A model generated the notes under the pieces. That model worked only from the letters and a program-made list of their open reading frames with translations. It was not told where the DNA came from and ran no database searches. A DNA stretch of 63,773 bases, filler included, from Folioceros fuciformis (taxonomy: Eukaryota): the NCBI GenBank assembly GCA_049999805.1. It is 13 parts of 13 records of this genome, joined end to end, with 100 filler letters (N's around TTAATTAATTAA, not from the genome) between each part and the next. Parts side by side here need not be neighbours in the genome. Positions count along the whole stretch, not along the records: positions 42,089 to 47,298 come from JBNGIO010003004.1; 12 more parts are not named here. The stretch is one strand, 5' to 3'. Numbering within the stretch: the stretch's first letter is position 1; the number at the start of each line of letters is the position of its first letter. Positions 4,126 through 62,636 of this stretch are shown in pieces. A program made the position numbers and the translations under genes.

Positions 4126-4129
4126 AGAT

Positions 4130-4256
4130 AGAAGAAGAAGCCCACAGGAAGCTGCATAAGAAGCTTCCTACAGATTAGCTTAAGCTAAACTAAACTAATG
4201 ATACTTAACTAGACACTAATCTTAGACTAAGCACATTGGGCTTTAATAACCCTACA
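4130..4256 (-). repeat. 5' part of family B LTR, joined to protease by an internal deletion
   Basis: Matches about 37470-37603 (aagcttcctaca...ctttaataaccctaca); starts TGTAGGG on the minus strand. Confidence 0.75.
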
Positions 4257-4299
4257 ATACTTAATTAACCTAAACCTGCCCTAACTACCTACTTTCTAT

Positions 4300-6556: not shown

Positions 6557-6656
6557 NNNNNNNNNNNNNNNNNNNNNNNNNNNNNNNNNNNNNNNNNNNN
6601 TTAATTAATTAANNNNNNNNNNNNNNNNNNNNNNNNNNNNNNNNNNNNNNNNNNNN
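6557..6656. other. Artificial contig spacer N44-TTAATTAATTAA-N44 (first of 12)
   Basis: Identical 100-nt spacers also start at 17459, 26093, 32683, 36833, 41989, 47299, 52234, 56011, 59243, 61197 and 62445; the 12-mer gives stops in all six frames. Confidence 0.98.
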
Positions 6657-8801: not shown

Positions 8802-8863
8802 TTTAGGGTTTAGGGTTTAGGGTTTAGGGTTTAGGGTTTAGGGTTTAGGGTTTAGGGTTTAGG
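8802..8863 (+). repeat. Interstitial telomeric array (TTTAGGG)8 + TTTAGG
   Basis: Eight perfect plant telomere units inside the integrase coding region. Confidence 0.97.
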
Positions 8864-17050: not shown

Positions 17051-17558
17051 ATGGATGCACCAAATTAAGATCCCACATTTTGCTGGACTGTAATCGAACT
17101 ATTGTAGTCGACCTAAGCATTTTTTAACGTCAGAAAAGAAGACGGATGGCTTAATTGACTATGTTATCAAAGGTGCGAGAAGCGCGTGGCGCGGAGTTGC
17201 CTCACACCCTCGGGGGAGTTGCCAGGTAATGCGAGAAGTCCCAGCCTTCACGACACAGCACAAACTGGCGTGAGCGTGTCTCCCTGTCGCTTTTAAACCA
17301 AGCACGCCTCGAAGTCGACATGTCACTCATACTGCTTGAACCAATCTCGACTCCCTCTCCCCCGCTTCCTTCCCGTCCGACCTGAGCGCGGGAGCTATCC
17401 AGCATCCCAAGCTTGTTGTGCCGCTGCGGCTGCAAACCCGCAATCAGGAATCATGAGCNNNNNNNNNNNNNNNNNNNNNNNNNNNNNNNNNNNNNNNNNN
17501 NNTTAATTAATTAANNNNNNNNNNNNNNNNNNNNNNNNNNNNNNNNNNNNNNNNNNNN

Positions 17559-24000: not shown

Positions 24001-24560
24001 TCAAGCTGTCGGCTCTCTTATCTTCTGCTCTAACAATAGTAGGCGTGATGTAGCTCTCCCGGTTTGTATGGTTTCTCAGCATTTGAAACGACCTGGAAGA
24101 GCACATTGGACAGTAGTGAAAAGGATACTTCGATATCTGAAGGGAACTAGTGGACATGGAATACATTACACAAAATGAGGCCATGATGAGGAAGAGCTTA
24201 CCCTTGTTGGATACTGTGATGCAGGCTGGGCAGCAAACCCAGACACTAGGAGGTCTGTCTCTGCTTATGCCTTTTTGCTTGCAGGTGGAGCTGTGACTTG
24301 GTCTTCCAAAAAGCAATCAATAGTGTCACTGTCTTCCACTGAGGCGGAGTACTCAGCCCTAACTCAAGCAGCAACAGAGGCTGTGTGGCTGCGAAGTCTA
24401 CTCACAGATTTAGGTCAGCCACAAAACAATCCAAGTATGATATATTGTGACAATCAGTCAGCCTTAGCCCTAGCACAAAATCTAGTATTCCATGCAAGAA
24501 CCAAACATATTGAGGTACACCATCACTTTGTGAGACATGCAGTGGAAACTAAACAAATGT
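21039..24560 (+). mobile_element. Ty1/copia family E: gag C-terminus to RNase H, bounded by LTRs of D and F
   Basis: CNYCNKPGHWAKDC, WFLDSGVSNH, HTDICGP, RSDNATEY, LYVDDC, SSTEAEY, RTKHIEVHHHF. Confidence 0.93.
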
Positions 24561-24572
24561 AGAGGAAAAAAA

Positions 24573-26092
24573 TGTGAAAAAATTGTGCAAAAACGATTGT
24601 TGCCAAAGCTGAATGAACAAAAATAATCAATTATGAAATGTTTACAAAACATGTGTTTAAATACTCATGACCTGGAGTCATGTTGTTTCACTTTAACTAA
24701 ATATATTTAATCTAAATTAAATACATACAACCCTAAGTGTGACAGGGCTTGTTATCTTAACACTCCCTCTCAAGCTTCACGCTTAGGTAACAACTGGTCT
24801 AGAACAATCTCCACAGAAATGAAGCAAGGCAAATAGTCCACCAGCGGGCAATGATTCTCCACACATGAGGCGTCCCCCACTTTGTGGTAGAAAACACATG
24901 TGCTGGCGGTGTAGCAGCAGCAGTTTTGAAATTGAAGAAAGCTCATAAAGAAAAATGGAGATAAATAACCCACAACTAGTTGTCTGCTTGTGGCTTCATC
25001 TATTGAGTCGTTCACTCCCTCTGTAGGTCTAATCCTACACTATGTGTCATTCACAGAAGCTGAGTAATTACCCAACCCTAAGCTATCCATATGCTGATAG
25101 TGTTTTGGCTTAGAAAGTGCTTTGGTTAGAATGTCGGCCACATTGTCATCTGTTCCAACATAACTAACCTTCGTTACCCCTCTATCCACGGCATCCCTGA
25201 TGTAATGATGGGATATCTCTATATGCTTGGTGCGTGCATGGAATCGAGGGTTAGCAACCAGGGCAAGCGCTGACATGTTGTCACAAAGTATGGGGGTAGG
25301 GTCCTGTTGTATCTGCCTCAAGTCTTGAAAAAACCTCCTCTCCCATTCAGCCTCCTTGGTGGCTTCAATGAGAGATGTATACTCTGCCTCCGTTGAAGAC
25401 AAAGATATAGAGGGTTGCTTCTTGCAACTCCAATTAATGGCAGCTCTTGCAAGAAGAAAGCAATATGTGGAGTTGCTGCGACGGGAGTCAGCATCAAACG
25501 CCCAATCACTATTTGTAAAACCTTGTAGAATGAGTTTAGCCTTGCCACTACGCTTGTATATGAGCCCATGTGTCATTGTACCTTTTAAGTATCTGAAGAT
25601 ACGCTTGACGGCAACCCAATGAGCCCTAGGGACCAGGGTGTTCTAAGAACTGCGACATTGTACTAACTGCATACTGGATGTCAGGTCGGGTCCATTTCGC
25701 CACAAAAAAGAGACTTTCCGACTGCGTGTCTATATGGAACATCTTGCATATCCAACTGCTCTTCTGGGGTTTGCGCACATTGAAGACTAGTGAGCTTCAC
25801 ACCCATAGTAGCTGGGGTAGTGGCTGGTTGTGCCTCGTCCATATGAAACTTAGTCAAATTTCCTTGATGTACTTGTTTTGATGTATGGCCATCACCCCAT
25901 CAGCTCTCACCAACTGGATCCCTAAACAAAACTTCAAGCCACCAATATCCTTCATTTCAAATTTGTTAGATTAAAGCTGCTTGACATGTTCTAAAAGGGT
26001 CTTGTCATTTGTGGCTAATATCACGTCATCAACATATAAAGCCAAAATGACGTATGAGGAGCCTTGGGTAAGCATATATATATTGGAATCAG
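24573..26092 (-). mobile_element. Ty1/copia family F: RT/RNase H, PPT, 3' LTR
   Basis: LTR 24573-24762 preceded on the minus strand by PPT GAGAGGGAG; SSTEAEY, CDNMSAL, VADILTK; LTR resembles 37023-37208. Confidence 0.92.
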
Positions 26093-26789
26093 NNNNNNNN
26101 NNNNNNNNNNNNNNNNNNNNNNNNNNNNNNNNNNNNTTAATTAATTAANNNNNNNNNNNNNNNNNNNNNNNNNNNNNNNNNNNNNNNNNNNNCTCACACT
26201 CACCCCCCCTGGCATTCTCAAATGCAGCAGTACCATCTATTTCTTCTTTCTCATGCTTAACGGCTGGTTAATCCAGGATATTGGACTATATTTACGAGAT
26301 GGAGAGTCAGCTTCATTTTCTGAGCTAACAGAGAGGGCCAATTCTCGAAATGAAGTTGCTATAGGATATGGACAGGGTGACAACACGGTAAGTCGTCCAG
26401 ACTGAATTTTGCATGCAGCCAAGCCACAGCCAGTACCTAATTTCATCCTCTTCATGCATCAGGTGCTCAATCCATGCAATAAAAGAGACCCACTAACCTT
26501 CAAACAAGGAGATTCCCTTGTCGTCATATCTGAGTTTGAGTAAGCTGTTGTACACCACCAAAAGGCTACCCATCTCCTCACAGACCACATTACGTGCTAC
26601 ATGGCTTTAGTCGAAAGTCCTGCTCATGACACCGCCAGGATTCCTGGAATCCGGAGTACTGTCAAACAGTGCCAATTCTTGGCTGAACTACTCCAGGCAA
26701 GATTCAGGTGGGACAACATTGGCAGACATTTTCAAAGGTTGTACCTCTCCATGGCTCACAGCTTGGTTCAACACTTGGTTCTTGCTATT

Positions 26790-29186
26790 TCAGCAAGTCA
26801 AGCCAGACGTTGTTCCATCTGCCTGTGGATTGCCCGTCATGTGCCTCTGCTTCATTTTGTCAAAAAGCCTTGCAGCTTCAGCCATCCTGCCAACTTTCGC
26901 AAGACCTTTGATCACCGTACTGTAAGCAATCAGATCAGGTCCGGACCCTAACTTTTGCATGTCATCAAAGACCTTGAGGGCCTCATCAACGTCACCTGCA
27001 TTGCAATGGGAATCCAAGAGGACATTACAGCTGAGCAGATCTGGCACCAGACCCTCTTGCAGCATTTTTTCAAACAAGCCAACTACCTCAGACACGTAGC
27101 CTGCTTTTCCAAAAGCATCAAGCATGCAAGTGTATGTAATCACGTTTGGTTCGCAGCCATACTGCCTCATTTCATTGAAAAGTTTAAATGCTTCCTCCAC
27201 CTGTCCAGACTTCCCAAACATATCAATAAGCGTGCTGTAGCAAACCACATCAGGGATGAAACCCATTTGTTTCATCTGTACGAAGAGCTCGTATGCTTCC
27301 TTGATGCGCTCAGCTTTGCCCAGCAAATGTGTCATCGCAGTGTATGTGCATGCATCTGGGGGAGGACCCCGACTCTTCATCTGATCAAAGAGTGCCAGAG
27401 CTTCAGTGATCCGGCCTGCCTTCCCAAACCCAGAGATGAGACTATTATGTGTGATCAAATCTGGTACCACACCAGTCCTGCACATCTCTCGACAAAGCTT
27501 GAGGGCTTCATCAAATTGTTCTGACTGGAGCAGTCCTTTGATCAGCACATTATATGTGTTGACATTGGGCCCCTGCTGCTCTTTTTTCATATCTTCGAAT
27601 GTCTTCCGTGCCAGATCCATTCTTCCTGCCATGACAAGGGAGGAAATAAGTGAAGTGTATGTAACGACGTTCGGAAGGCAGCCTCTGCTCTTCATTTCTC
27701 CAATTAATTCTGCAGCCCTATCAACATCTCCCTTTCTTCCGAGTCCATCTATGACTATGGTGTATGTTACAACATTAGGGGTACATCCCTCAGCCTGCAT
27801 TTCACCGAAATACTGTTCAGCTGCTGCCCACCTCTCAGCTTTGGCAAGACCAGAAATGATTGCACTGTATGTGAAGACGTTTGGTCTGTTAACCCCCATC
27901 TTCATTCGCGAAAAAAGTGTACAGGCCTTGTCCACCTTGCCGGCCTTACAAAGTGCATCAATGAGCACGGTGTACGTGATGACATCAGGCATCACAGTCA
28001 TCTCTACTAATCTTGCAGCAAGCGACTCGGCCTCGCAAAATTTACCAGCTTCACGTGCTAAATCGATAAGGTCTGAGTACGACAACCCTTTGACACTCTC
28101 ATCGGATAAAATCAGTGTACATCCCAACTTAGCAACGTAAGACAAATCCACAGCTGATTTAAGCCTCTCATTTACACTCATAGTTTTGAAGACTTTGCAA
28201 GCCTCGTCCAAGCAGCCTGCTTTAGCGAGTCCCTTGATTACCATGTTGTAAGTGTTCACGTTTGGAAGGCAACCTTCCCTTTCCATGTCATGGAAAAGCA
28301 TTTGAACTTCCTGAATATCGTACCCTCCTTTAACCAATAATCCGATGACGCAATTATATGTAACCGTGGTGTGCTTGAAGCCAGCATCACGAATCCTGCG
28401 GAAAGCTTTAACTGAGAAGTTGAGGCAACCTCCCTTGCCAAATTTCGTTAGGACTGTCGTCACAGTGAAGTCTGATATCCTACAGGCATCGCTAATCATC
28501 TGCTCTAGTTGGTCCCACATAAGCTCAAACAGCCGCTCATCTCCAAGTCTTCTGAGCATGAGAGTATACGTGGACGAGTCATGCCTATAATCTGGCAGGG
28601 TTGTGGCCCAGTTGAAAAAGCTCAAAGCGACCTTAACGTTGTCGTGCAATCGGATTATGCGTCTCACATGATACGTCTCGATCCTGAAATCCAGCTGGTA
28701 AAGGGCTTCGTCTCGAAAGCCGTCCTTACATGTCCTGTTCAGGATACCCAAAAGAGTGTCTGCCTGGAGATTCTTCAACAGAAACGGTGTCGGTAACAAT
28801 GGCCTTACTTCCTGCTCCAACACATCGTTGCCCCTCCGAAACTGCACAACAACATCTCTGCAGCAAAACGTCTTTCCCTGCATCCTCTTCCTCAATCGTT
28901 GCTGCTCTTTGGTTTCCTCTGTTAATGCTCGACTCCCCGAAACCTTCCTGTAGCCATAAATCCATGGACCAACTTCGAACACCGTCACAACATTCAACAC
29001 GTCTGCAATCCAACCAATACCCTTATCACCAGAGCACTACATCCCGCACGTAGCACGGAAACAGTTCATGCAGAGTAGAGAACCTCCCGTACCTCTCGGA
29101 AGCCATCCCACTGCTCTACCACTGAAACGTGATGCCCTCGATACCGTCTCAGGACATCTTGCTGGCAACAGAGGGTCGCTTGCCAT
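26790..29186 (-). CDS. P-class pentatricopeptide repeat protein, about 768 aa (exons 29186-29093, 29002-26790)
   Basis: 736-codon open frame with about 15 35-aa repeats (PNVVTYT, PDVVCYS, PDLITHN); no E/DYW domain. A phase-compatible 90-nt GT-AG intron links an upstream ATG exon (exon 1 is inferred). Confidence 0.92.
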
Positions 29187-29437
29187 ACAAATCGCCGGCT
29201 GCTGTAGCCCGCCGGATTCCCATGAAGCCCCGGATTTGAGCTGCACGGAGTGTTGCAAGAGTTTAACCAAAATAAAAATGCCTGATCACCAACAACCTGT
29301 TTTCTTCGCCTACCTTCGGCCCGGCCGTGCTGCCACCAAACGACGCAATGCCTGCAACAACAATCCGAGCCCCTCCGATCGCCAAACCCTACCGCTCCCC
29401 CACAAGCCCTAGGGAAGCAAGCATCGCCAGACGGATC

Positions 29438-30448
29438 ATGGACCCAGAACGCGATTGGGCCGTGGTGCAGGAAGAATTGCTCTTCGAAGTCGGGAAAGCG
29501 CCGTTTGGCAGCTGTCATGCCTCCAGCATCGTGCAGCTGGAGGCGGACAGCTTCCTGGTGGCCTATTTCGGAGGCTCTTGGGAGGGCCAGGCGGACGTGG
29601 CCATCTGGACGTCGCGGCTCGAAGGGGGGAGATGGCTGGACCCCGAGAAGGCGGACGACGAACCGGGAGTGGCGATGTGGAACCCGGTGCTATGGAAAAT
29701 GCTCAACGGCGAGCTCCTGCTTTTCTACAAGATCGGGCCGGAGGTCCAGAAATGGAGTGGGTTCCTGAAACGATCAGGCGACAACGGCCGAAGCTGGTCC
29801 CCGCGAGAGGCACTGCCGCCCGGGATTCTGGGTCCAGTCAAGAACAAGCCCCTAGTGCTTGGCGACGGTAGCCTGCTGTGCGGCTCGTCCGTGGAGAGCT
29901 GGAACGCATGGGGATCCTGGATGGACGCCACCTCGGATGGGGGTCGGAGCTGGGTCAAGCACGGCCCGATCTATGTCCAAGACGGGCCGGGCGGGGTCAT
30001 TCAGCCCGTCCCGTTTCTGTGCCGGGACGGGACTGTGCGCGCTTTGATGCGCCCATCAGACGAGATTCGCAAGATTTGCATCGCCTCGTCGCCAGACGGA
30101 AGGAATTCCTGGACTTCCGCCGTGCCCACCTCGCTGGACAATCCCAACTGCGGCTTCGACGGGGTCCGGCTGCAGGACGGCCGCCTCCTGCTCGTATACA
30201 ACACCTTATCCCGGGGTGTGCTGGTGGCCGCCGTGTCGAGCGACGACGGGGACTCCTGGACCCAGGTCCTCACCCTGGAGGAAGAGACGGAGAAGACCGA
30301 CGCCGAGTTCTCCTATGCCGCCGTCATTCAGAGCTCCGACGGGCTTGTGCATGTCAGTTACACCTACCACAGGTTCTCCATTAAGCATGTGGTCCTGAAG
30401 CCCGAGCAGCTCCGGCTGGCAAGCGGGTGGCAGATAGCAAGCAGGTGA
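29438..30448 (+). CDS. BNR/Asp-box repeat (sialidase-fold) protein, intronless, similar to Arabidopsis At5g57700
   Basis: SCHASSIV, WNPVL, FYKIGPEVQKWSG, LPPGILGPVKNKP, Asp boxes SGDNGRSW, TSDGGRSW, SSDDGDSW; alternative in-frame ATG at 29348. Confidence 0.92.
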   Translation: MDPERDWAVVQEELLFEVGKAPFGSCHASSIVQLEADSFLVAYFGGSWEGQADVAIWTSRLEGGRWLDPEKADDEPGVAMWNPVLWKMLNGELLLFYKIGPEVQKWSGFLKRSGDNGRSWSPREALPPGILGPVKNKPLVLGDGSLLCGSSVESWNAWGSWMDATSDGGRSWVKHGPIYVQDGPGGVIQPVPFLCRDGTVRALMRPSDEIRKICIASSPDGRNSWTSAVPTSLDNPNCGFDGVRLQDGRLLLVYNTLSRGVLVAAVSSDDGDSWTQVLTLEEETEKTDAEFSYAAVIQSSDGLVHVSYTYHRFSIKHVVLKPEQLRLASGWQIASR

Positions 30449-32682: not shown

Positions 32683-32782
32683 NNNNNNNNNNNNNNNNNN
32701 NNNNNNNNNNNNNNNNNNNNNNNNNNTTAATTAATTAANNNNNNNNNNNNNNNNNNNNNNNNNNNNNNNNNNNNNNNNNNNN

Positions 32783-36832: not shown

Positions 36833-36932
36833 NNNNNNNNNNNNNNNNNNNNNNNNNNNNNNNNNNNNNNNNNNNNTTAATTAATTAANNNNNNNNNNNN
36901 NNNNNNNNNNNNNNNNNNNNNNNNNNNNNNNN

Positions 36933-37239: not shown

Positions 37240-39462
37240 GGACGTGTGACAAGGAAGGTTCATAAGTACGTTGTTATGTAGCACGGTCACGCTTTTATCC
37301 TGCTTGCTCTTTGTAGGATCGCTCTAGGAGCTACATGGTGAAGGAGGAGAAGAGGAGACAAGAAGGAGAGGAGAAAGAGAGGTCACACTGTCACAATGAG
37401 TCTCTCAATAGCAAGGGAGCTGAAAGGGGTATTTATACCTCTAGAAGAGCTCCCTAGGAAGCTTCACAAGAACTGCACAGAAAGCTGCGCAAGAAGCTTC
37501 CTACATATTAGCTTAAGCTAATCTAAACTAATGATACTTAATTAGACACTAATCTTAGACTAAACGCATTAGTCTAAGCACATTGGGCTTTAATAACCCT
37601 ACAACCTCCCCCTTAAAGGCCAATTTACCTTCATAGGAGAGCGGTCTACCTCATGCTCATGAGTGTCCGAGCTTGTGCGAATTGCTCCGAAGAGAGCCCC
37701 TTGGTAAGAACATCTGCAGGGTTCTGACTAGTGTGAACTTTCACAAGTTGTACCCTCTTGTCTTCCACCACCTCTCGAATGAAGTGATACGTCACTTTCA
37801 CATCTTTGGTCTTCGCATGAAACACTGGATTCTTCGCCAATTGGATAGCACTCTCGCTATCACGATGCAAAACTGGCAGCTCAACCTTGATTTCCAAACC
37901 TCCCACTAAACGAGCAAGCCACATGGCTTCCTTGCAAGCCTCAGTCGCTGCAACATACTCGGCCTCTGTGGTAGATTGCGCTATGCACGATTGCAAACGA
38001 GATCGCCATGAGACTGCCTTTCCAGTGCACATGAAGACATAACCTGATGTGGACCTCCTTTTGTCCATATCCCCTGCATAATCAGCATCCGTATATCCCA
38101 CTACAAATGCATCTTCACTACCAAAACATAAGCACCAAGCTTTCGTACCATTCAAGTACCTCATAACTCCTTTCACTGCCTCCCAATGCTTCCTACCACG
38201 GTTTGACATAAACCTGCTAACCACTCCCACTGCAAAGGCAATGTCAGGACGTGTAGCAATCATTGCATACATCAAACTCCCTACAGCTGATGAGTATGGA
38301 ACCTTCTCTATTTCAGCTTTGTCCTCTGTAGAACTTGGGCAATCCTTGCTCGACAGTTTCACACATGGAGGCAACGCAGTACTCAATATCTTCCCCTTCT
38401 TCATATTGAAACGTTGAAGCACCTTGTTAATGTATTCATCTGAGACAAGTAAAGCACATGCTTCTGTTTGTCTCGACGAATACGCATGCCAAAAATATGG
38501 CTTGCCTCTCCCAAGTCTGTCATGTCAAAGCGACCATTCAACTTTGACTTCAACACTGAAATCTCATTACTGTTAGTCCCAACAATTAGCATATCATCCA
38601 CATAGAGGACCAGAATGAGCAAGCTTCCATCCTTAGCTTGCTTCGTATAGAGGCAATGATCCTGATCGCTACACTTGTAGCCTTGAAAAAGCATAAATGA
38701 GTGGAACTTGAAATACCACTCCCTGGTGCCTGCTTCAAACCATAAAGGCTCTTCTTTAACCTGCACACCATATTCTCTTTCCCCTTCTCAATGAAACCCT
38801 TTGGTTGCTGCATGTATACCTCTTCCTGGAGATCACCATGCAGAAATGCCGACTTCACATCCATTTGGACAAGTTCCATGTCGTTCCTTGCAACTAGACC
38901 AAGAACACATCGCAAGGTGGTCATTTTGACAACTGGTGAGAAAATCTCATCAAAGTCAATACCTTGCTGTTGCTTAAAACCCTTAGCAACCAATCGTGCC
39001 TTGTACTTGGGTTTGCCATAATGGGGTATGTCCTTCATCTTATACACTCATTTGCATGGCAACGCCGTCTTGCTCTTAGGCAACCGAACCAACTCCCAAG
39101 TTTGGTTCTTGTGGAGCGAATCCATGTGCGACTGCATCGCCTTCTCCTACTTTTCCTTGTCAGTCACTGACATGGCCTCTTGGTAACAAGAGGGCTCCCC
39201 ACAATCCGTCAGCATGATATAATCAAGAGATGCAACATACCTGTCAGGAGGACGTGAAGATCCTTCCTGACCTACGAAGCACTGGCGCCTCGACCGGAGC
39301 TGGTTGCACTCTCTCCACTTGTATAAGTGGAGGAACTTGTTCCTGCACATCACGATGTTCAACCTGCGCGGGGCAGTCAAATCCATCTTCTTGAAAGACC
39401 ACCTGTCGCACCTCCACAGTTGGAGTAGGCTTCTTGTGCATCTTGGTCTCATTGAAGAACAC
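37240..39462 (-). mobile_element. Family B 3' half: integrase tail, RT, RNase H, PPT, 3' LTR
   Basis: [59 protein letters not shown] then LTR starting at 37603. Confidence 0.93.
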
Positions 39463-41988: not shown

Positions 41989-42088
41989 NNNNNNNNNNNN
42001 NNNNNNNNNNNNNNNNNNNNNNNNNNNNNNNNTTAATTAATTAANNNNNNNNNNNNNNNNNNNNNNNNNNNNNNNNNNNNNNNNNNNN

Positions 42089-43233
42089 CGACGGTCTCGA
42101 ATTGTCCGCCGCCACCAGCTCATCAGCAACTTCTACGAGCTTCTGGCTGCCTAAAGCGATGTCCACGTTCTGCGAAGTGATGGCCTCTTCTTGAGCCCAG
42201 ATCTGGGTGCCGGCGAGGGTGAGCAAGAAGGCTGCTTGCGTGTTGCTCGGAGACCCAGCGAGCAGCTTGTTGGCAACCTGCCGCACACACCAAGTTATAT
42301 CAGACGAGCATTCACTACTGCTCCAACACAGTGGCAGAAGAGGAACCGCGGCGTACCGAGATAATCCGCGCTCGGGCTTGTGAGATTGTCTTCAGAGTCG
42401 TGAGAGCACTCAACACTCTCTTCTCCAAATCCTTGGCAATATGGGAGAATTCCTTCAAGGTCCCGGCCTTGCTCCCGATTGCCTGGCTCAGTGCCCCGGC
42501 CTGGATGGTCGCTGCCTTTACCTTCTCGGGTAGGGGACTGACCAGGCTTTGCAAAGACGCCAGCGCCTCGGAAATGTTGGCAACCGCGTAAGCAAGAGTC
42601 TTGGCGTCCTTCCCGACGAGGCCTCCACTCACTGTCTTCACCTGTGCAACGGCCTGCGAGATGGGCCCGTCTGGACTAACCGTGGAGCACAATGAGCGCG
42701 CTGCAGAACAGATTTTCTGTAGGCTGGCCTGGATCAACGCCACTCCCTGAGAAGCTATCGGGCCCAACACCTGCACGAGATCACCCACTCCAAGTCGTCA
42801 ATCGACATGCTGGCAACGGAAACTAGAAAACAGAAGCCTATCTCGCCGCTCAGGGTCTCACTGACCGAACCCGGCTTGGTTGCAATCTCACCACTGAGAC
42901 ATCTGGAATTCACCCACACTGTACCTGGAATCCCGAATTGACGACAGTGACATTGGCGCCCTGGGTGGGCGTCGGGGCCTCTGCCAGGGTGTAGTTGGCA
43001 AAGATGCAGACCAAACCGGACTCGGTGCCTAGCTTGAACCTGGCCGTGCTGCCAACCTCGTACCACTTGCCGACGTACGCAGAGAGGTCGAAGTTCCGCA
43101 CGGTCGGGGGATTCGGGCACGTAGTGGCCTTGTATGAGGCCGAACAGCTTGCGGTGGCATAGCCTCCCCCAGGTGCAACCGATAGCACCAGGAACGCGAG
43201 GACCGGCCACCAGGCAGCCTGTGTACTCGCCAT
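42089..43233 (-). CDS. Secreted ApoD-like lipocalin with long helical segment; exons 43233-42925, 42770-42357, 42277-<42089; 3' end in gap
   Basis: Hydrophobic signal peptide; CPNPPTVRNFDLSAYVGKWYEV (SCR1); CIFANY; NVTVVN; two phase-0 GT-AG introns keep 304 codons open to the gap. Confidence 0.82.
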
Positions 43234-43828
43234 CGTTTAGATCTCCAGTTGTTTTGCGAGGCAGCTGCACTCCCTTTATGCGAATGGACACGCCATCGTG
43301 GGACCACATCTCCGAACGGGAAGTTGCTGCGACGGTTCCCTTTCGGTTTCCTGCAGGCTGCTGCCATTCGTCGAGCTCGTCCGGAGACGTTGCCAGAAAC
43401 GACGCGTGACGAAGTTTGGGACTCGGGAATCGGGAGGCCCACAACTGTAATGTGAACAGATATAAATTGCAGCCATTTGCCGGCGCTCTCTCTGGAAGAA
43501 GCGGTGGTGCGTCTTTTTAGTTGTTGAGGTGCATACGTTGGCCTCGGTGGACAACGACGAAGTCTTGTCTGTCCTTAAAACGGACACGAATCAGGCACGT
43601 CATGTCCTCGTCCGTCCGCCGCAAACGGCGGTGATACACACCAAAAGCACAGTCTGTCATACTAGAAGGCTTCAAGATAACGGGGTGCTTAATATTGTGT
43701 TTTGGCGAGGAGAAAGGTTTGATGTTCGAGACCCTGACTGGGGCTGGGGCTGGGGCTGCGGCTGCTGCAGGGCCTGGGGCTCCGTGTGATGATCGCATCC
43801 AGCCTCCAACGGGGCTGAGCTCTGGATC

Positions 43829-46018
43829 ATGGCGGCATCTGAGATTGCCGCATCGTTTCTCAAGTCGGTAGAGAATGCAGGGGAAGTGCAAAGCAAGCTG
43901 CTGGAGAGTCTGCTCCGCAAGAACGCGGACTGCGAGTACCTCCGAAGGCACGGGCTTAATGGCAGAACGGACTTGGAGTCCTTCCGCTCTTGTATTCCGG
44001 TGATCAATTACGATGCTGTAGCTGAAGACATTGAGCGGCTGATGCAAGATCACACTGCTCACATTCTTTGTTGCGAGCAGACTACTGAATTTTTTGTCAG
44101 GTGTGGGACTGCTCTTGAGCAAAGAGAGTGCGCAGGAGTCCTAGCCAGTGTTTCCATGTCCTTCTTGTTGAGGAAAGCATTTCCGGTAGCTCGTGCCTGA
44201 AGTAACGAATCTCTTGGTTACTGGTGTCACTGAGCAGTTCGGGAACATCCGCAGGCAAGCGCAAGACCTTCCCGGTTACTGCGTCTCAGCTCGAGGCCAT
44301 CGACCGTTACCTTTCCTACCTTGAAGTTTTTGAGCAGTAAGCTGTGACACCGAACCTTGCAACCTTGTACCTGGAGATATTATATTTCGGTTGAGGATAC
44401 ACATATTGTAGGGCTGGCTGGCTAGTAATTGCAACCCCGGCCTAGGATTGCAACTTGCTTGTGACGAAGAATGATGCATGCCGTGACATAACCGCATATC
44501 CTATTGTAAATGTGGCTCAGACAGGCAGATCGAGAAAGCGCAGTGATGGCTTCGGGCCCGCGAATGATGTTATATTCGGTTGCCAGACAGGCAAGCACTC
44601 CAGGTGGGCTGAAAGTAGAGACAGCAATATCTTCCCTTCTTAAAAGGAGATTTGGCAACGTATCAACGGACCTAGACTTGTCCAAGGAAATCACAAGTCC
44701 GATCGAGGTTATCCTGTGCGACGACTACGAACAGGCAACCTACTGTCATCTTGTCTGCGGATTGATCCGCTTCGCGCAGGTGAGTAGAATAAGTGTGCCA
44801 TTTGCTTCAGGACTGGCCAATATCTTCGGCAACTTCAAGCAGTGGTGGGAAGAAATATGCAGTGACATCGAACAAGGCAAGCTGAGCAGCCGTATCAAAG
44901 ATGCTGCCCTGCATGCATCCGTGTCTAAGCTGCTGGTGAACGTCGATAAAGATGTTGCTCGCTCTATCAGAAGGGAATGCAGTAAGGAGTCGTGGGAGGG
45001 CATCATACCTCGGATCTGGCCAAATGTGAGGCTGGTGACTTGCGCTACCACGGGCTCCATGGAGCAATACGTCGACCACATAGAGTTCCTCACTGGGGGT
45101 CAGATCCAAATTTTGTCGCAAATATATGCTGCATCAGAGGCCTACATGGGAATCAATACCAATTTCAATGTTCCTCCGAGGGAGGTCGCCTATACTCTAA
45201 TGGCGGACGTTGCTTACTTCGAGTTCCTTGATCTGGACGAGGAGCAGTCTGTGCAGAGTGTCCTCCAACCTATTGAGCTCGCAGCTGTGAAGGAGGGACG
45301 ACAGTATGAATTGGTGGTCACCAATTTCGCTGGTGAGTGAACGGTAAGGCTAACGATTCAGTCCTTCTCCGCCCCGTGAGCAGTGACTAAAGCATCTGCT
45401 TATCATCCATGGTTTCCATTGACCTCTGGTGCAGGATTGTGGAGATCCAGGATTGGGGACATCGTGAAATGCGTGGGATTTTACCACTCTACTCCCGTGG
45501 TCAGGATTATGGGTAGAAAGAACGTGATTCTGAGTATCAGCACGGACAAAACAGAGGAATTAGAGCTTATGCACGTGCTGATTGCTGCCGCCAAGCAGGA
45601 ACTCCCACCAGATGTCCAGCTGGTTGACTACAGCAGTGCGGCAAGCGTGGCCTCCGTCCCTGGCCATTACATTATTTTTTGGGAACTTATCCAGCCAGAT
45701 GGCCAGGCCGTGAGCATTGCCCAACTGGAGAAATGCTGCAAAGCAATCGAAGCGGGGCTGAGTGAGCCATACAGGAGAGGACGGAATATCGGGACAATTG
45801 CTCCTTTGGAGCTGCACCTTGTGGAGTCTGGATGCTTCCGGAAGCTGGCAGAGCGGATAGGGGCCACGCCGGGAGCGTCTACGTACCAGTACAAGACTCC
45901 CAGATGTGTGAAGGGAGGTACCCCTGTGTTGCAATTCCTGGAGGCGGCTGTTGTGCAAGTAGCATGGAGCCGGCACAATCCTCCACACCCTTATCTCAAT
46001 CCTGAGCGTACTGGTTGA
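43829..46018 (+). CDS. GH3: GH3 acyl-acid amido synthetase, 588 aa; exons 43829-44100, 44238-44336, 44521-45332, 45435-46018
   Basis: SSGTSAGKRK, TPGGL, TTGSMEQY, YAASE, YFEFL, TNFAGLWRSRIGD, PGHYIIFWE, QYKTPRCV; all splice phases consistent. Confidence 0.95.
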
Positions 46019-47256: not shown

Positions 47257-47398
47257 TTTGTCAGAGGATTTAATATGCCCATTTAATCTACATGGAGGNN
47301 NNNNNNNNNNNNNNNNNNNNNNNNNNNNNNNNNNNNNNNNNNTTAATTAATTAANNNNNNNNNNNNNNNNNNNNNNNNNNNNNNNNNNNNNNNNNNNN

Positions 47399-47754: not shown

Positions 47755-50700
47755 TATCGTGACAGAGCAAAAGCCTTGGAGCCAAAAACTCTGAGGTGTA
47801 ATAGACTAGGCTTACGATGCCATAATGCTTCGTATGGTGTCTTCAAGGTAAGAGAACTAGGTATTAATCTGTTTAGTATGTAAGTCGCAGAAACTATGGC
47901 TTCTGCCAAAAAAGTTTGTGGTAAACCTGCCCATAGTAACATGCTTCTTGTCATGGACAGGAGAGTTTGGTTCTTTCGTTCAACAACTCCGTTTTGTTGT
48001 GGGGTATGCGAAACAGTAAGTTGACGTTAGATTCCTCTTTCCTCTAGGAAGGAGTCAAAAACATGGTTCACAAATTTGGAACCATTATCAGTGCGAACAC
48101 ATTTCAGTTGCTTGCCAGTCTAGCGTTCAATCATCTGGAGCCATTCCTAAAAAATGGTAAAAGTATCACTTTTCAGGTGAATTGGGTACGTGCATGTATA
48201 TATGGAGAAATCATATGCGAAGCAAAGGTAATATATTGCTCCCCCTAATGAAGCAACTTGTATTTTGCCGGAAATGTCAGCATGGACTAATTCCAGGACT
48301 TCTGTAGCACAAGGAGATGCTGTCTGAGGAATGGGCAATTCCTTCTGCTTAGCCATAATACAAGCTTCACAAGGAGGTAGCTCCTTGAATACTTGAAAAA
48401 GACTTTCTTCGTGGCAATCCTCCAGAGACATGTCAAGTAACTTACGTTTGTTGACGTGCCCTAATCTTACATGCCATAGGACAGCAAGCTTCATTGATGG
48501 TTTTGTAACAACAGATACACTATGCTGTACAGCATAAATATCCAGTTTATACAATCCATGTTCTATCACACCTCTGAACACAGTGAATCAAGGTTTGTTT
48601 TTGTGATAGAACATAAAAATTCGGTTTGCAGCTTGCATCTCATACTGACTTGTTTGCATAAGTTTGCTTACGGAGAATAGGTTCTTAGCCATGGACGAGA
48701 CATATAGTACGTCCTCCATTGTAAGAATGGATCCATTATGTAAAATAAATTTACATGAACCACTCCCTTGTACAGATAGACTAGTTCTGTTGGTTTCATC
48801 ACCTAACAGAACTCTTTCATTATTATATGCAGCATTATACTCATAAAATTGTTTTTTATTCCTGAAGATATGTGAAGTTGCTCCAGAGTCCAGATACCAA
48901 ATATCCTCTGGAGGAAAGGTTCGGGCCAAGCATACTGTAAGGATCTTCATGGCTGGTTTAGTGTCACCTTAATTCTTCTGCTTGGCTGTTACTGCTGCAA
49001 CTGTCTTCTGTACACGCTAGGGCTCACCTGCCTTCTTTCTTCTACAGGCTCTTGTCCAATGCCCCGCAATCCCACAGTAGTGGCAACTACCAAGGTGTTT
49101 AACCGATTGAAGGGGCCTCATATTTTTGTTCATGGGCATTTTGGCCTTCCCCTTGAATGTCCTTTGGTTCATTGCTAGTATCCTCTCAGACTTACTATTA
49201 GGAGTGCCCTGAGAGAATACACGGCTTTGTTCCTCCTGATATAAAGCTCCAATCACGTTCTCTAACATGATTGTGCTTGTGCTCCCAGATGTTGTTGCCA
49301 TACTGGCTTGGCGAATTGGGCCATTTTGACTAGTTACAAATGATTGATAAGATGGAGGAAGTCTTGTCAGCAACTCGGCCACAGCATCAACTTCAGGCAT
49401 TGAGATGCCTGTTAATGAAGTTATCTGTGCCTTCAGAGTCCTGAATTTGCTGGTATATACAGCAACTTTGTCTCCTTCTTTCGTTCGTAAATTATAAAAT
49501 TCATGTTTGAGAGCACACAGCGTAAAGGACATTCTTAACCTGATATGCCTTCTCTAACTGATCCCATATCTCAAATACTTGTGTCATGAACTCAACTTCA
49601 GGAACCAAATCAGCATCTAGCCCAGCTATAAGAAGAGTGATTGCAATACCATTCAGCTTGTCCCATTCTGCTATCTTTTCAGCTGTTGGAGCTGGTATTG
49701 CATTCGGGTTTGGTTTCTTTACCGTACCATCTACTATACTCCAGACGTGTCTAGCGATTAGAGTTGCCCTCATACGTATCCGCCAAACAGGGTATTTTGT
49801 ACCATTAAAACGATCTTTTTCTTTCAGTTCTGAAGTATAGGTTGCTTTAGTTGGTATTGTGCTAGCCATACTAACATATGCTATTGGGTTCAAAGACAAG
49901 GTTTGTAAACTATGTATAATTGAATCCAACGCATTGACCAAACCAGTGGTCATAAATAGCTTCGGATGGGTAGTTCCCAGAATTATGTATCTAGCTACTT
50001 CGATAAGTAGGTTCTTTGGATCTAAGTTCTATTAGGTGATCTATCGAAAGGAGGCTCGAGAATAGCCAGGTAAGGTTGATGTTCAAAGGAGCTTCTATCT
50101 CATTTTTTTGTTTCTGTTATCAAGTTTCTTTCTTAAAGATTCACCATAAACGTGTAGGGTAACATGAAATAGGGTGTCGTTTCGTGAATAAACCCTAACT
50201 TCCTTACCATTTCGTGCAGGTTAGCAAGAGGAGATTTGGCTAAGTGGACCAATCAAAACAAAAAACGACACGAAGAGACTGAAGAGACCCAAAGGTATTT
50301 GTGTCACTTCAGATTTGACTTTTCAAAACTGTTGTTGTTGTCTACATCACCTGGTTCTTCCTGACCTGCCTGCATGGTTAGATCCTGTAATTGTATTATA
50401 ATTTCATTTAAATCACTTCGAATTTCGCAAGATTCAACATATATAAATTTCTCCACACAATTCCTAATATCTTGTATTCTGTTTTGAGTAATAGCAACTT
50501 GTGATATTAATTGTGATTGAAATTGTTGAATTCAATTTAGTTGTGAAAACAACACTGAAAATTGACCATATCCTCTTTTGTTGTGTGAGGTGATTGGTTA
50601 ATCCCTCCATACTCAGGGGATCTATTATGGGTCTTCAATCTATTGTATGGCTCATGGCTAGAGATGCCTTTTGCTGTCGTCGGGGTTTTCCTATCCCTTT

Positions 50701-51039: not shown

Positions 51040-52333
51040 AGTGTGCCACGACTTAAATACAAAACTAGGCTATATGCCGAAAAGACACACCTCTTGGCTT
51101 AACCCAGCGAGTTAGGGTTTATCCAAAATGCTCTCACACCTCTCCGTCGGTTACAACCTTGTAGCCGATGTTTTTCCTGGAAGCGAAGACGTGATTACCA
51201 AACGCGGTAGCTGCTTATCAAGACGGCCACGGGATCGTGATCGTCTGGACAGGACGACATCAAATGCTGGTGATGGTGTGAGCAGCTGGTCTGCTGATTT
51301 TGGCGAGGACGGTAAGGAGCGGTCTGCCTTTCAATTGGAAGGCAAACAGGAGGGCCTTGGGATTGCTTCTAATAGGGTGGAGCAGTGGGAGCCTGCCTCC
51401 AAACAGGACAGCTCCTCCTTTGCTCAAGCTTCGGCCCACCGCCCCACCGATGAAGCGGCTGGTTTACTGTTGGCTAGAATGCTTGGAGGTGCTCCACACA
51501 CCTCCTCCAAGAGGGGAAGACACATGGAAGGAAGTCACGTGGAGGTTCCTGAATCCAAGGGCAGAAGAAGGCGAGGTTCGCAACGGGGTGGTGGGGCAGA
51601 TGGTGGAAAACCGGGATCGAGTCGGATCCACGTCTCGTGCCTGGAATTGAAGGGATCCCATGGACCGGCGGGGGGAGGAACTCCTGAGGGTGGCGGCCGT
51701 GCTGAGCTGTCCTATGGCTGCGGTGAGACGGAACGACCCTTGGGATGCAATCCCAATGGCAAGAGTGTAGAGGAACCACAGAAAGTGCTCTAGCCGAAAG
51801 CTCTGTGGTCCCCATCCCGCCATAGGGCGATAATCGGTGCTTGTGCATCTGCTTCAGGCCGACCAGATTGTAGAATGGGCAAGTCTACTACGTTGGGTGA
51901 CAAGGAGGTCACCATGAAGACTGTGGGTCAGCCACAGGAGCGTTGGTGTGATCGTTCAAATAAAGCAGGTGAACTGCAGGAGGACAGACCGGCCGACGTT
52001 TTGCTGGAGTACACAGTCCCAAGCTGCTTGGTTGGCAAAGATGGTAGATTTCTTAAAGAGGCAAGTCGGTGCAGCAATGGAGGGGCCCTCCTAACCGCAG
52101 GAGGCTCTGAGGCACCTACTGGTGCTCGGGGTCTGGAGGTTGATTACTCGTCTCGGAAGAGAATGGAGAAGGGAGAGCAACATGAATGTTAAGCATGATT
52201 AACGTTGATATTAATTAGTGCTAATCCAGCTTANNNNNNNNNNNNNNNNNNNNNNNNNNNNNNNNNNNNNNNNNNNNTTAATTAATTAANNNNNNNNNNN
52301 NNNNNNNNNNNNNNNNNNNNNNNNNNNNNNNNN

Positions 52334-52645
52334 GAGTGAGTGAGTGAGGGAAGTCGTAGATCTAAGAGGTCAGGGTCGTTGTAGTGACTTGAGTGAGATT
52401 GTGGGCACAAAGAGAGGTGCAGCTGACCGCTGGACAGCGAGGCCTGTCCTACGCCTGATCGGAGCTGGAGGAGAGCCCTCAAATCCTTCATCAAGTCGAT
52501 TGAGTCCGACCCTCCATCCACAGCAGCAAGGAACCCCATCGCTCCTTCGTGGGAACGGAACCCAATGTCTCAACGACAGTGGGATAAGTGTGGCCACTAA
52601 AGGTGGAACCCGTCGGCAATTAGTGCCCGGGGTTTTGCCTCCACA
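52334..52645 (-). mobile_element. Family H LTR-like terminus inserted in family B RT
   Basis: TGTGGAGGCAAAACC begins directly after the codons for KQQQGID. Confidence 0.75.
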
Positions 52646-55400
52646 TCAATACCTTGCTGTTGCTTAAAACCCTTAGCAACCAATCGTGCCTTGTACTTGG
52701 GTTTGCCATAATGGGGTATGTCCTTCATCTTATACACCCATTTGCATGGCAACGCCTTCTTGCCCCTAGGCAACCGAACCAACTCCCAAGTTTGGTTCTT
52801 ATGGAGCGAATCCATCTGCGACTGCATCGCCTTCTCCCACTTGTCCTTGTCAGTTATAAACATGGCCTCTTGGTAACAAGAGGGCTCCCCACAATCCGTC
52901 AGCATGACATAATCAAGAGATGCAACACACCTATCATGAGGACGTGAAATCCTTCCTGCAGGAACCTACGAAGCACAGGCGCCTCGACCGGAGCTGGTTG
53001 CACTCTCTCTTCTTCTACAAGTACAGGAACTGGTTCCTGCACATCACGACGTTTAACCTGTGCAGGACGGTGGAGTCCATCTTCTTGGAAGACCACCTGT
53101 CGCACCTCCACAATTGCAATAGGCTTCTTGTGCATCTTGGTCTCATCGCAGAACACGTCATTGCTATGAATAACCCTCTTGGCCTCTAGATCCCATAGAC
53201 GGTATCCCATCTCACGAGATTCACCATAGCCAAGAAAAATACATATTCTTGACTTGGGAGCCAACTTGTCCCGAAACTCCTTTGGAACATGGTAGTATGC
53301 CTCGTAGCCAAACACTCGTAGATGCTTGTATGAAGGCTTCTTTTCAGACCACATCTCCTCTGGAACCTGCTCATCCACAGCCTTATTAGGAGATCTGTTA
53401 ATAAGATGCACTGCAGTAGCAACTGCTTCTGCCCAAAATCTGTTACGCAATCCAGAGTTTGATAACAAACTACGCATCCTCTCCTGGATGGTCCTGTTCA
53501 TCCTTCAGCCACACCATTCTGGGGAGGAGTATACGGGGCAGTCAATTCTCTCTTGATTCCCTTGGAATCACAGAATGATTGGAAAGCCTTCGAAACATAC
53601 TCTCCTACATTGTCTGTCCTTAGACACTTCAGTCGGAGGCCACACTGATTCTCCACAAGGGTGACAAATTTCCGAAACACTGTTAGAACATCATCCTTTT
53701 CCCTCAAAGGATAAACCCACACCTTGCGTGAGAAATCATCTATGAAAGTGACAAAATAGGATGCACCGCCTAATGATATAGTGGGCACATGTCCACACAC
53801 GTCACTGTGAACCAATTCAACAGGTTTCTTTTTGTGTTTACCTCTTGTTCCATGTGGTGACTTCGTCTGTTTCCCATATAAATAGTACTCGCACACGGAG
53901 AAATTGGAGAAGTCAAAAGCAGGGACGTAACCAAAACGAGATAGGATCTTCATTCCTTTTTGAGACATATGTCCTAACTAACAATGCCACAAGGAAACAC
54001 TTGGTTGTTCCATTACTCAAATCACATGATCCTTGATAGTGGTTACCTGAAGTGAGTACAAAATGCCACACTTCGATCCATGAGCTAACACAAAAGAACC
54101 TTTGGAGATCTTCCAAGAATGATCCCCAAACCAATAGTGGTACCCAGTGTCATCCAACTGCCCTGCGCTAATCATACTTTTTGTCAACTTCGGAACATGC
54201 CTAACATCCTTCAGTATGAATGAAGATCCGTTGTCGAACTTTAGCTGCACATCATCAACGCCTGCAATCTTGCATGCGTAGTTATTTCCAAGCCGAACAC
54301 ATCCTTTCCTAGTAGCATCATAGTTGCTAAACCACTCCCTATGCGGAGTAACATGGAAAGACGCTCCAGAGTCAATTATCCAATTAGAGAATAAATGACT
54401 ATCCACGGCTGTCAATTGTGCAAAATCAAAGGAAGACAAGATAAGAACATCTCCATCGTCAACAGAATTCACCTCGCCAGGCTTGATACTCGGACTTACC
54501 TTGTTGTTGCTCTGCTTCTTCTCCTTTCCTTTGTCCTTCTTGAACTTCTCGCAGTCCCTTCTGATGTGACCCTTTTTATAACAATGGTAACACTCAACAT
54601 TGTTACGACTACGAGATTTGCTACGGGAAAGACTTCGCTCCTTGTACTTCCCCTTTGAAGTGGACCTTCCTCTCACCCTTGGACCCTTTCGAAGGTTCCA
54701 TATTCTTTTCATGTTCACCTCTTCTGTTAGCAGGCTTCCTTCTCCATTTACAATGGTAAGGCCACTGGCAGGAGCGGAATTACTCAGAGCTGCACGAAAA
54801 GTGTTCCAACTTTCTGCTAATGTGACCAACAAAAACATAGCTCTCATGGAATCTGGGGACGAGATACCTTGAGTTGAGAGCTGGCTGAAAATGGTATTGA
54901 ACTCATTCAAATGATAGGACATCCTCCTCCCTTCCTTCATCTTCAAGTCCACCAGCTGTTTCAACCAGTACACCTGAGAAGCCGCACCTTGCTTCTCATA
55001 CAGGTCACACAACTTCTATCATAGCTCCTACCTTCTGGTCTTGTCTTTCACATTGAAGTAGACCGACTTCGACAATGTTAGCATGATGGTAGACCTAACA
55101 AGCTCATCTAGATCTTGCCACTCATCCTGAGTCATGCTAACAGGTTTCACTCCTAGCAACTTTATGGGCTTGCTCTACTTCTTCTGCACTAGAACATTAT
55201 ACACTTGTTCTTTCCAGAACGGAAGTTAGTACCATCTAACTTCTCGATATTGAATATGACATTTTTTGAGGACGTCATGATTCAAAATTGATACAAATCA
55301 AGCAAAAGGCTAGTTAGAAACTATCGAAATGTAATGTAGATTCTTAAAGTTACCCTCACAACTCATTCCGAATCGGCTGTCCACAATTCAGGCCTCAATC
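52646..55400 (-). mobile_element. Family B: gag, PR, INT, RT start
   Basis: IEKLDGTNF near 55250, CYHCYKKGHIRRDC, WIIDSGASFH, FIDDFSRK, PCKWVYK. Confidence 0.93.
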
Positions 55401-56495
55401 GCTCATAACTAGAGTGCCCCGACCTCCAATCCAAATTTGGCTGCCTCGCGGCCAAGATCTTGGCTGCCCCACATCTGCGTCGCCCGTGCCCAGCACCTGT
55501 GGTCGCGTCGCCCACACTTGCGTTTCTTTGCGTCACCCGCTCCTCGACTACCGCGGCGCCACAGCGCCCACTCCTGGCGGCCGAATTTGATGCCCGCCGG
55601 CGCCGCTGGCATCCTGGCTCCTACGACCGAGCCGGGCTAGCGCCCTGGCACCCTGGCGCCCCCGCGGGCTGGGCTCCCGGGAGGTTAGCACCCCGGGGTG
55701 GCGTCCCTAGCTGGCCTGGGTGCCCACGGCCTGGGAGGCCCGCAGCGTGGGTGCCCCTGGCGCCCCGCCCGGGGCCTGGCAGTGCCCTTAGGGCAAGGGG
55801 CTCGAGGGGGCCTGACTGCCGGGGGGTTGGCGCTGGCCCGAGCTGGCGCCTGCAGGCTGAGAGCCTGGTGCCCCAGTTACCCGATGGCCCGGGGCTTGGC
55901 TGCCTTGCAGTGCCTCTGCTCCTATGGCGCCTGTGTGTCCGCAGCACCTATGGCACCTATGGCACCATAGGACTGCAACGACAATAGGGGAATGTGTGGC
56001 CCCTTGGGTGNNNNNNNNNNNNNNNNNNNNNNNNNNNNNNNNNNNNNNNNNNNNTTAATTAATTAANNNNNNNNNNNNNNNNNNNNNNNNNNNNNNNNNN
56101 NNNNNNNNNNTGTGGCCCCTTGGTGGTTCTTGGGTGTGCAAGAAATCACTCCACAGCAGTCAAGCGCTCTTAATTGGGAGCGGCATCAAGTCCAAGAAAG
56201 CATCTTCAGCAGATCTTAACTAAATATTATTTTAAGACGCAATGAATTCTGGCCTATCTTATCACCGTGCTTGTCTCCTATCTGTCCTTCACGTTCTCCT
56301 TCCTCGGCCACCAAATCTCTGAGCTCTCCTCTCTCTTCGCTAGTCAGTTAGATCCTCTCATAAAACCTCCGCCTCACTCTCACTGTCGCCTAACTTCTCC
56401 TGTTGAGGCGTAGGTGGGGTCTGCTGGGGGGTCCTTCCCCTTCCTTCCGGTCGTCTGTTGCTAAGGACTATTACAGGTTCTTGCTCCATCCAGGC

Positions 56496-59110: not shown

Positions 59111-59450
59111 ACATTTCTTCTCAACCTAAGTACACAGTTCTTCCCCCGAGCTAATCACTCCTAGCTCTATAGATATGGGGAGGCCCTCCTTATATAGGCT
59201 TTTTTGGACTTGTTCAAAGGTCGAAGGCCAAGGAACAAGTAGNNNNNNNNNNNNNNNNNNNNNNNNNNNNNNNNNNNNNNNNNNNNTTAATTAATTAANN
59301 NNNNNNNNNNNNNNNNNNNNNNNNNNNNNNNNNNNNNNNNNNTCGTGACAACTAATGGCGGCAACTGAAGTGCCTCCACGAGGAAACGCGGTGCTAGCTG
59401 GAGCTCGTGTGAGTAGTCCTTCAGTCCTTTATTTTTAACCATCGCAGGTT

Positions 59451-61101: not shown

Positions 61102-61296
61102 AAAGAACGTGTCGCTTAGAACGGTCACGATGGTATGAAACGTTGTGATGTTTCATACCTTGAATATTTTGCCTATTTAAATTCTAAACTAAGGCTNNNN
61201 NNNNNNNNNNNNNNNNNNNNNNNNNNNNNNNNNNNNNNNNTTAATTAATTAANNNNNNNNNNNNNNNNNNNNNNNNNNNNNNNNNNNNNNNNNNNN

Positions 61297-62444: not shown

Positions 62445-62636
62445 NNNNNNNNNNNNNNNNNNNNNNNNNNNNNNNNNNNNNNNNNNNNTTAATTAATTAA
62501 NNNNNNNNNNNNNNNNNNNNNNNNNNNNNNNNNNNNNNNNNNNNCAATGGTTATGTGGGGCGTGGAATAGTCAACCTTGGCAGATCCCAATGCACTCGAG
62601 AGCCTTGCAACGCAACCCCTGCACTGATTGGGGCCT

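Follow-up and report, generated by a model that had tools for sequence, protein, structure and literature searches.

A spliced gene of Folioceros fuciformis with a lipocalin-like start followed by a probable coiled-coil region

Gene content of the window and the transcribed locus

We analyzed a window of 63,773 nucleotides (the whole stretch of DNA considered here, filler included) from Folioceros fuciformis (assembly GCA_049999805.1), in which 12 identical linkers chain 13 small contigs (Table 1). Because of this construction, adjacency across a linker is meaningless and any "gap" here is the end of a contig. The lipocalin-like gene belongs to a contig of 5.2 kb (JBNGIO010003004.1). The original prediction had given the right coordinates for this gene, which lies on the minus strand, and had described its third exon as open to a gap. 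That gap turned out to be one of the 12 inter-contig linkers and the gene runs off its own contig; hence, the sequence at 41988 and below is unrelated to it. The contig stops within exon 3, and the 3' end of the gene is absent from the assembly.

The same contig also carries a GH3-family gene in divergent orientation, the start codons of the two genes being approximately 600 bases apart. Pfam recognized the N-terminal GH3 domain (E 2.4e-48) as well as the central and the C-terminal one. A single frame on its own small contig, with a higher GC content (0.53), matched the full length of BNR_2 (sialidase-like beta-propeller, E 3.8e-71). Another frame matched PPR_2 (E 7.5e-162, 13 stretches) and resembles a P-type PPR gene that has no introns. 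Most of the other contigs are dominated by Ty1-copia-like Gag, integrase and reverse transcriptase frames, according to a reading by eye.

Table 1. Features annotated in the window; positions count along the whole stretch.
Feature	Position	Strand	Details
Contig JBNGIO010003004.1	42089-47298		5.2 kb; carries the lipocalin-like gene and the GH3-family gene
5' untranslated region	43234-43383	-	Upstream limit approximate; X2 contig record 16 spans 43227-43383, depth 2.7 (low)
Exon 1	42925-43233	-	103 codons, phase 0; from translation: leader, CPNPP, SCR1 (GKWYEV), strand B with Cys (CIFANY), strand C (NVTVVNSGF)
Probable signal peptide	43156-43233	-	About 26 residues, cleavage site approximate; by hydropathy only
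Intron 1	42771-42924	-	154 bases, GT..AG, phase 0; X2 joint, 2 contigs, depth 220
Exon 2	42357-42770	-	138 codons; heptad-repeat helical region (predicted), two Cys seven residues apart, conserved LSQA.G motif
Intron 2	42278-42356	-	79 bases, GT..AG, phase 0; X2 joint, 2 contigs, depth 331
Exon 3, partial	42089-42277	-	62 codons + 2 bases; helical (predicted), open frame cut by the contig end
Artificial linker	41989-42088	.	N44, 12-base all-frame stop word, N44; separates contigs
Linkers, 100 bases each (identical N44/12-base/N44)	6557-6656, 17459-17558, 26093-26192, 32683-32782, 36833-36932, 41989-42088, 47299-47398, 52234-52333, 56011-56110, 59243-59342, 61197-61296, 62445-62544		
GH3-family gene	43830-46018	+	Same contig as the lipocalin-like gene
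PPR frame	26790-29036	-	748 aa
BNR_2 frame	29276-30448	+	390 aa, single frame
Ty1-copia-like frames	139-5894, 7226-11072, 17723-20116, 21432-25642, 37646-39047, 48147-50028, 52597-55015		By eye

Two sequencing runs were compared over positions 42089-43600. Run X1 is of DNA type, and run X2, from a different study of the same organism, is probably RNA; this label is a guess, and X2 was treated as RNA because its contigs skip the introns. Indeed, X2 contigs lack exactly 154 and 79 bases (joints 42925 to 42770 and 42357 to 42277, each in two contigs), and the skipped stretches have CT..AC ends on the plus strand, which correspond to GT..AG on the strand of the gene. The depth of X2 was zero inside both introns (42803-42904 and 42293-42343), while the DNA run X1 had depth in 30 of 30 bins, introns included, and contained neither the 154-base nor the 79-base joint. 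The original prediction depended on the splicing of exon 1 to position 42770, which is confirmed by the X2 joints and their absence from X1. At the 5' side, the main X2 depth begins in the bin 43211-43261.

At the other side of the gene, X2 depth is unbroken down to 42089. An X2 contig of 350 bases (record 10) matched 42089-42240 with 0 differences and extended 198 bases past 42089, and the contig of record 9, from a copy that has diverged (22 differences over 163 bases), extended 621 bases past the contig end. Since both contigs overrun this end, the message continues beyond the part of the gene visible here. Record 1 of X1, a DNA contig, exceeds the contig end by exactly 198 bases, as does the RNA contig of X2 record 10. 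This equal overhang hints that exon 3 is intron-free over that stretch and that both assemblies halt at one branch point.

Lipocalin-like start and relatives of the gene

As listed in the original prediction, exon 1 contains the motifs CPNPP, GKWYEV, CIFANY and NVTVVN. When exon 1 was compared with all PDB chains using phmmer, human ApoD (2hzq) came first (E 8.8e-07, query residues 38-85), followed by Blc-type lipocalins (E 4.8e-05 to 1.4e-03) and then by insecticyanin and bilin-binding protein (E of approximately 0.01). In the alignment with ApoD, CPNPP is identical, G-x-W-Y-E is shared and the strand-B cysteine is followed by A-N-Y. The resemblance to ApoD proposed earlier was therefore borne out by the best PDB match, and the first two ApoD motifs that had been put forward lie in this alignment, while the third (strand C) falls beyond its limits. 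The SCR1 motif that opens strand A, G-x-W-[YF]-E, is represented by GKWYEV, aligned to the motif of both ApoD and Blc. The Pfam family Lipocalin_2 (PF08212) matched exon 1 with 14.5 bits (E 0.035) over profile positions 1-35 of 146, below the 24-bit cut-off, as expected because the match is a fragment. Judged from these comparisons, the predicted likeness of exon 1 to lipocalins exceeds chance. The leader is hydrophobic, with a maximum of 3.1 at residues 11-19 in a Kyte-Doolittle plot (window of 9), in agreement with the signal-peptide-like leader assigned before, which is predicted only. Exon 1 also carries two N-x-S/T sequons.

The cysteines of exon 1 include residues 30, 39 and 76, and residues 39 and 76 are the two ApoD-type cysteines of the N-terminal half. 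In ApoD, the N-terminal and strand-B cysteines form disulfide bonds with cysteines of the C-terminal barrel half; here, their partners may lie on the missing 3' part or be two cysteines of the helical region. In lipocalins, the basic residue of SCR3 packs on the tryptophan of SCR1. The lipocalin fold is an antiparallel barrel of eight strands (A-H) with a helix at its C-terminal end, and only strands A-C could be assigned in the visible protein. With ApoD/Lazarillo-type lipocalins, the gene shares a predicted secretory leader, the Cys-Pro-Asn-Pro-Pro sequence, SCR1 and the strand-B cysteine. However, the barrel of ApoD is complete, with eight strands in approximately 170 residues, whereas the match of the gene stops after strand B/C and is followed by at least 200 residues of heptad repeat. 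The likeness to the Blc and TIL proteins lies in Lipocalin_2, the sole Pfam family touched by exon 1, and in the A-R-F that Blc chains share with it after SCR1. These proteins differ in being single complete barrels, and the exon 1 score is below the Pfam cut-off. Blc is described as a lipoprotein and TIL as having no leader in the part of the literature consulted (PMC4441748).

A HMMER search with exon 2 against 1.84 billion representative proteins retrieved two relatives at E ≤0.001, named here P0004 (E 6.1e-07, 36% identity to exon 2) and P0005 (E 2.1e-05, 31% identity). A search with P0005 then found P0006, which is 81% identical to it. All three come from short Logan or JGI contigs. Both P0005 (228 aa) and P0006 (216 aa) carry, in one open frame, the helical region preceded by SCR1, the cysteine motif of strand B and strand C, and they align gap-free across the junction of exons 1 and 2. 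A tblastn comparison of P0005 with the window showed 46% identity for exon 1 and 32% for exon 2. Among the positions that do not vary are the first helix cysteine and an L-S-Q-A-x-G motif. The sequences of P0005 and P0006 part exactly at the end of exon 2, where the match of P0004 stops as well, which points to a shared position of intron 2. On the basis of these alignments, the predicted architecture of a lipocalin start followed by a helical region is conserved in two homologues. No lipocalin signal downstream of strand C was present in any of the four sequences (the gene of the window and P0004 to P0006); no relative displays a downstream barrel because all of them end at the same intron.

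Other searches added no relatives. A word-index protein search with exon 1 against longer proteins returned 228 candidates, none at E ≤0.01, and the same type of search with P0005 recovered only itself and P0006. With exon 3, for which the query was the frame read through the intron, no match was obtained when residues 39-100 were scored against candidates of 55-175 aa. Pattern scans of JGI metagenomes matched 163 and 224 stretches, none of which was confirmed, and tblastn of all parts against the window revealed no second copy and no missing exons. The homologues had generic helical matches only in Pfam, all sub-threshold. In runs X5 and X6, from other organisms, only about 40 bases around SCR1 were covered, with a likeness below 90%.

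Secreted lipocalins of non-seed plants have been described recently. A 2025 preprint defines the Seedless plants-specific lipocalins (SLLs) of charophytes and bryophytes as a third group of plant lipocalins (bioRxiv 10.1101/2025.03.13.638958). According to the portion of this source that we drew on, SLLs have a predicted signal peptide and an extracellular location, mostly consist of one Blc-like domain, and have functions that remain unclear (10.1101/2025.03.13.638958). The statement in the original prediction that described plant lipocalins lack such a secreted arrangement is thus out of date, the SLLs being signal-peptide-bearing, although as single domains. Like the SLLs, the gene studied here encodes a lipocalin-like protein with a predicted leader, and the occurrence of SLLs in non-seed streptophytes agrees with its plant-type neighbors in the window (GH3, PPR). 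Unlike the SLLs, it continues after strand C with at least 200 heptad residues, and the text of the preprint consulted mentions no helical module; the word "coiled" occurs 0 times in its main text, supplements aside (10.1101/2025.03.13.638958).

The existence of such secreted SLLs in charophytes and bryophytes, as reported in the consulted part of the same preprint, would fit an ordinary single-domain lipocalin of SLL type, with its true downstream exons elsewhere and the helical exons belonging to another gene. We regard this as hardly credible. The RNA contigs join exon 1 straight to 42770, and no X2 contig has an alternative joint leaving exon 1. Moreover, exon 2 has no methionine and so cannot begin a protein alone, and P0005 and P0006 hold both parts in one frame.

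The helical region and constraint on the coding sequence

No lipocalin motif was detected in exons 2 and 3, and none of strands D-H, SCR2 or SCR3 was seen in the 303 visible residues. Exon 2 had no Pfam family. A Pfam match of exon 3 was dismissed as chance-level (E 0.02, 15.1 bits for a cut-off of 27). A PDB search by sequence with the helical exons gave nothing better than E 0.62 and no lipocalin match. The region comprises at least 200 residues, is poor in charge, and has two cysteines at exon 2 positions 21 and 28 that would lie on one face of helix 1.

We analyzed the periodicity of hydrophobic residues by power spectrum. At a period of 3.5 residues, z reached 9.6 for exon 2, 13.2 for P0005, 14.6 for P0006 and 5.7 for P0004, and the beta part of exon 1, used as a negative control, had z -1.0. 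At periods of 3.6 and 3.67 there was no signal (z ≤0.8; exon 2 at 3.67, z 0.1). None of 1,000 shuffles reached the observed 3.5 power for exon 2 residues 43-138, and the same was found for P0005 residues 57-196. From exon 2 residue 43 onward, the phase stays constant through the splice junction and the whole visible part of exon 3. Exon 3 contains a zone of weak heptads, after which the phase resumes at the same value. In total, the register is constant over approximately 155 residues, and the phase of P0005 is nearly constant over residues 57-196. When the sequence was laid out in rows of seven, two columns were filled by Leu, Ile, Val and Ala. The region has the long heptad repeat and coherent a/d register of a coiled coil, which is a structural class and not a homology family.

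These results uphold the earlier view that exons 2 and 3 are of helical type and without lipocalin motifs (z 9.6 at period 3.5, no lipocalin match in Pfam or PDB). They do not support the apolipoprotein-like bundle that had been proposed for them, since the period is 3.5 and not 3.6 or 3.67. From its periodicity, the region is best classified as a predicted coiled-coil-type heptad repeat and not as an 11-residue amphipathic repeat of apolipoprotein type. Exchangeable apolipoproteins and apolipophorin III also have Ala/Leu/Ser/Gln-rich helices, and P0005 had a weak ApoLp-III match (E 0.011, 16.3 bits). However, this score is below the cut-off of 36.3 bits, the exons of the window had no ApoLp-III match, and their period is not 3.6-3.67. 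A PDB profile search returned designed antiparallel coiled coils, a chemoreceptor, reovirus sigma-1 and tropomyosin, all at E ≥0.0018, which we read as compositional.

AlphaFold2 modeled exon 2 as all-helical with low confidence (pLDDT 60.0, pTM 0.43). The helical part of P0005 was also all-helical, in a model with a pLDDT of 47.7 (beta part below 50) that is of no use for packing. Foldseek of the pLDDT-60 model of exon 2 against the PDB gave 0 matches at E ≤0.001. The pectin methylesterase inhibitor was considered for its Cys-x-Cys helix start and set aside, as it ranked 35th in Foldseek with an E-value of 0.44. ESM Atlas scores of 0.82 are under the level of evidence. A complex prediction with three copies of exon 2, run without alignment and without controls, had a score of 0.00 and bears neither way.

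Constraint on the coding sequence was examined using variant contigs, which represent paralogues or alleles and are present in both X1 and X2. Their occurrence in X2 implies that these paralogues or alleles are expressed. Among the 129 differences between the window copy and these contigs, 40 were listed, of which 36 fall in exons. Third codon positions accounted for 11 of 15 listed differences in exon 3, 11 of 17 in exon 1 and 1 of 4 in exon 2, proportions that could shift with the 89 further differences. Two length variants were also seen. One RNA contig lacks 166 bases within 42278-42445 (the last 29 codons of exon 2 and intron 2) and has non-canonical ends, while one variant, seen in DNA and RNA runs, lacks 173 bases within 43176-43350, upstream of and into the leader. 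These variants suggest a small paralogue family of varying length.

Could the gene be a decaying or non-functional chimera, such as a transcribed pseudogene or a young fusion without selected function? It has very few relatives in large protein collections, two thirds of the protein are without a known family, and the gene sits on a small unplaced contig of a repeat-rich assembly. On the other hand, the three exons are open and their canonical splice sites are used in RNA, 22 of the 32 differences listed for exons 1 and 3 affect third codon positions, the architecture and intron position are common to homologues of only about 32% identity, and the heptad pattern is intact. With these observations, we consider decay improbable. 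The gene is real and expressed, and belongs to a small family of lineage-restricted distribution.

Possible architectures of the complete protein

We are confident that the gene encodes a real, spliced and conserved architecture in which a lipocalin start is followed by a predicted coiled coil. A literature search on lipocalins with a coiled coil or helical insertion, on bryophyte lipocalins and on secreted plant lipocalins, with supplements outside its scope, did not find this architecture, in line with the lack of a prior description supposed in the original prediction. Secreted plant lipocalins are no longer new, but the combination of a lipocalin start and a coiled coil is one for which no description was found. 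As to what the complete protein looks like, the original prediction had offered two options, a split lipocalin with an inserted helical bundle or a half barrel fused to one. The lipocalin start running into at least 200 aa of helix was retained by our analysis, whereas the type of bundle was not.

Our preferred reading, to which we assign a probability of about 0.45, is that the architecture described above is completed by strands D-H on the missing 3' part, so that the barrel is split by a coiled-coil insertion. The predicted hydrophobic leader would take the protein into the secretory pathway. The mature protein begins as an ApoD/Blc-type lipocalin, with Cys-Pro-Asn-Pro-Pro, SCR1, strands A, B and C and the strand-B cysteine, and directly after strand C comes the helical heptad repeat with its two conserved cysteines on one helix face. 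This module may form an elongated rod, by associating with itself or by packing against a helix that returns, and the rod would occupy the position of the C-D loop. In lipocalins, the C-D loop borders the open end of the calyx, where ligands enter. With strands D-H following on the missing part, the insertion might gate, oligomerize or anchor an extracellular binder of small hydrophobic ligands. Completion of the barrel is favored because SCR1, also retained in P0005 and P0006, is strictly kept even though the helices share only about 32% identity, and because both ApoD-type cysteines are kept. Also in its favor, the 621 further bases of the paralogue suffice for a returning helix and strands D-H. 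Against it stand the lack of any D-H strand, SCR2 or SCR3 motif in the 303 visible residues and the scarcity of relatives of the helical part.

The constant register over some 155 residues can be read differently, as it suggests that a straight rod points away from the beta strands, from which the return to the barrel would be long. Such a straight rod resembles what would be expected of a half barrel fused to a coiled coil, in which an exon encoding the leader and strands A-C was shuffled onto a heptad-repeat protein and no further strands follow. The three-strand piece would then pack on the first helix, perhaps via two disulfides, or meet its counterparts from other chains at the end of an oligomeric rod. 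The introns flanking the helical exon are in phase 0 and compatible with shuffling, and the lack of lipocalin signal past strand C in four sequences agrees with the absence of further strands. Furthermore, the mature part has four relevant cysteines, two from the lipocalin part and two from helix 1 (exon 2 positions 21 and 28), making two internal disulfides possible; the helix cysteines could pair with the lipocalin cysteines, which speaks against insertion and fits a self-contained half barrel. However, the fifth cysteine at residue 30 makes the count odd, and the transcript continues at least 198 bases, and that of the paralogue 621, past the visible part. It is also hard to explain without a barrel why SCR1 and the strand-B motif are best conserved in distant homologues (46% against 32%). 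Overall, the half barrel is a serious contender, held at somewhat less than an even chance. The structure models, with pLDDT values of 47.7 and 60.0, cannot decide between insertion and half barrel. A special case, in which further strands are lacking and three-strand pieces contributed by several chains would build a common barrel at the end of an oligomeric coiled coil, seems quite unlikely to us.

Lipocalins are regarded as compact single-domain barrels. To our knowledge, the known multi-domain lipocalins place their modules before or after a complete barrel, as in alpha-1-microglobulin/bikunin and violaxanthin de-epoxidase. Tentatively, and at odds a little short of even, this could be the first lipocalin with an interrupted calyx, in which a rod of 150-250 residues leaves the C-D loop and returns to strands D-H, with the cup mounted, gated or oligomerized by it. 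If the insertion is true, the gene would represent a rare natural domain insertion in a lipocalin loop at the ligand entrance. If the half barrel is true instead, the gene would be evidence that a three-strand lipocalin fragment can stay under selection in a new structural setting. The gene family would also be an unexpected addition to the secreted lipocalins of non-seed plants.
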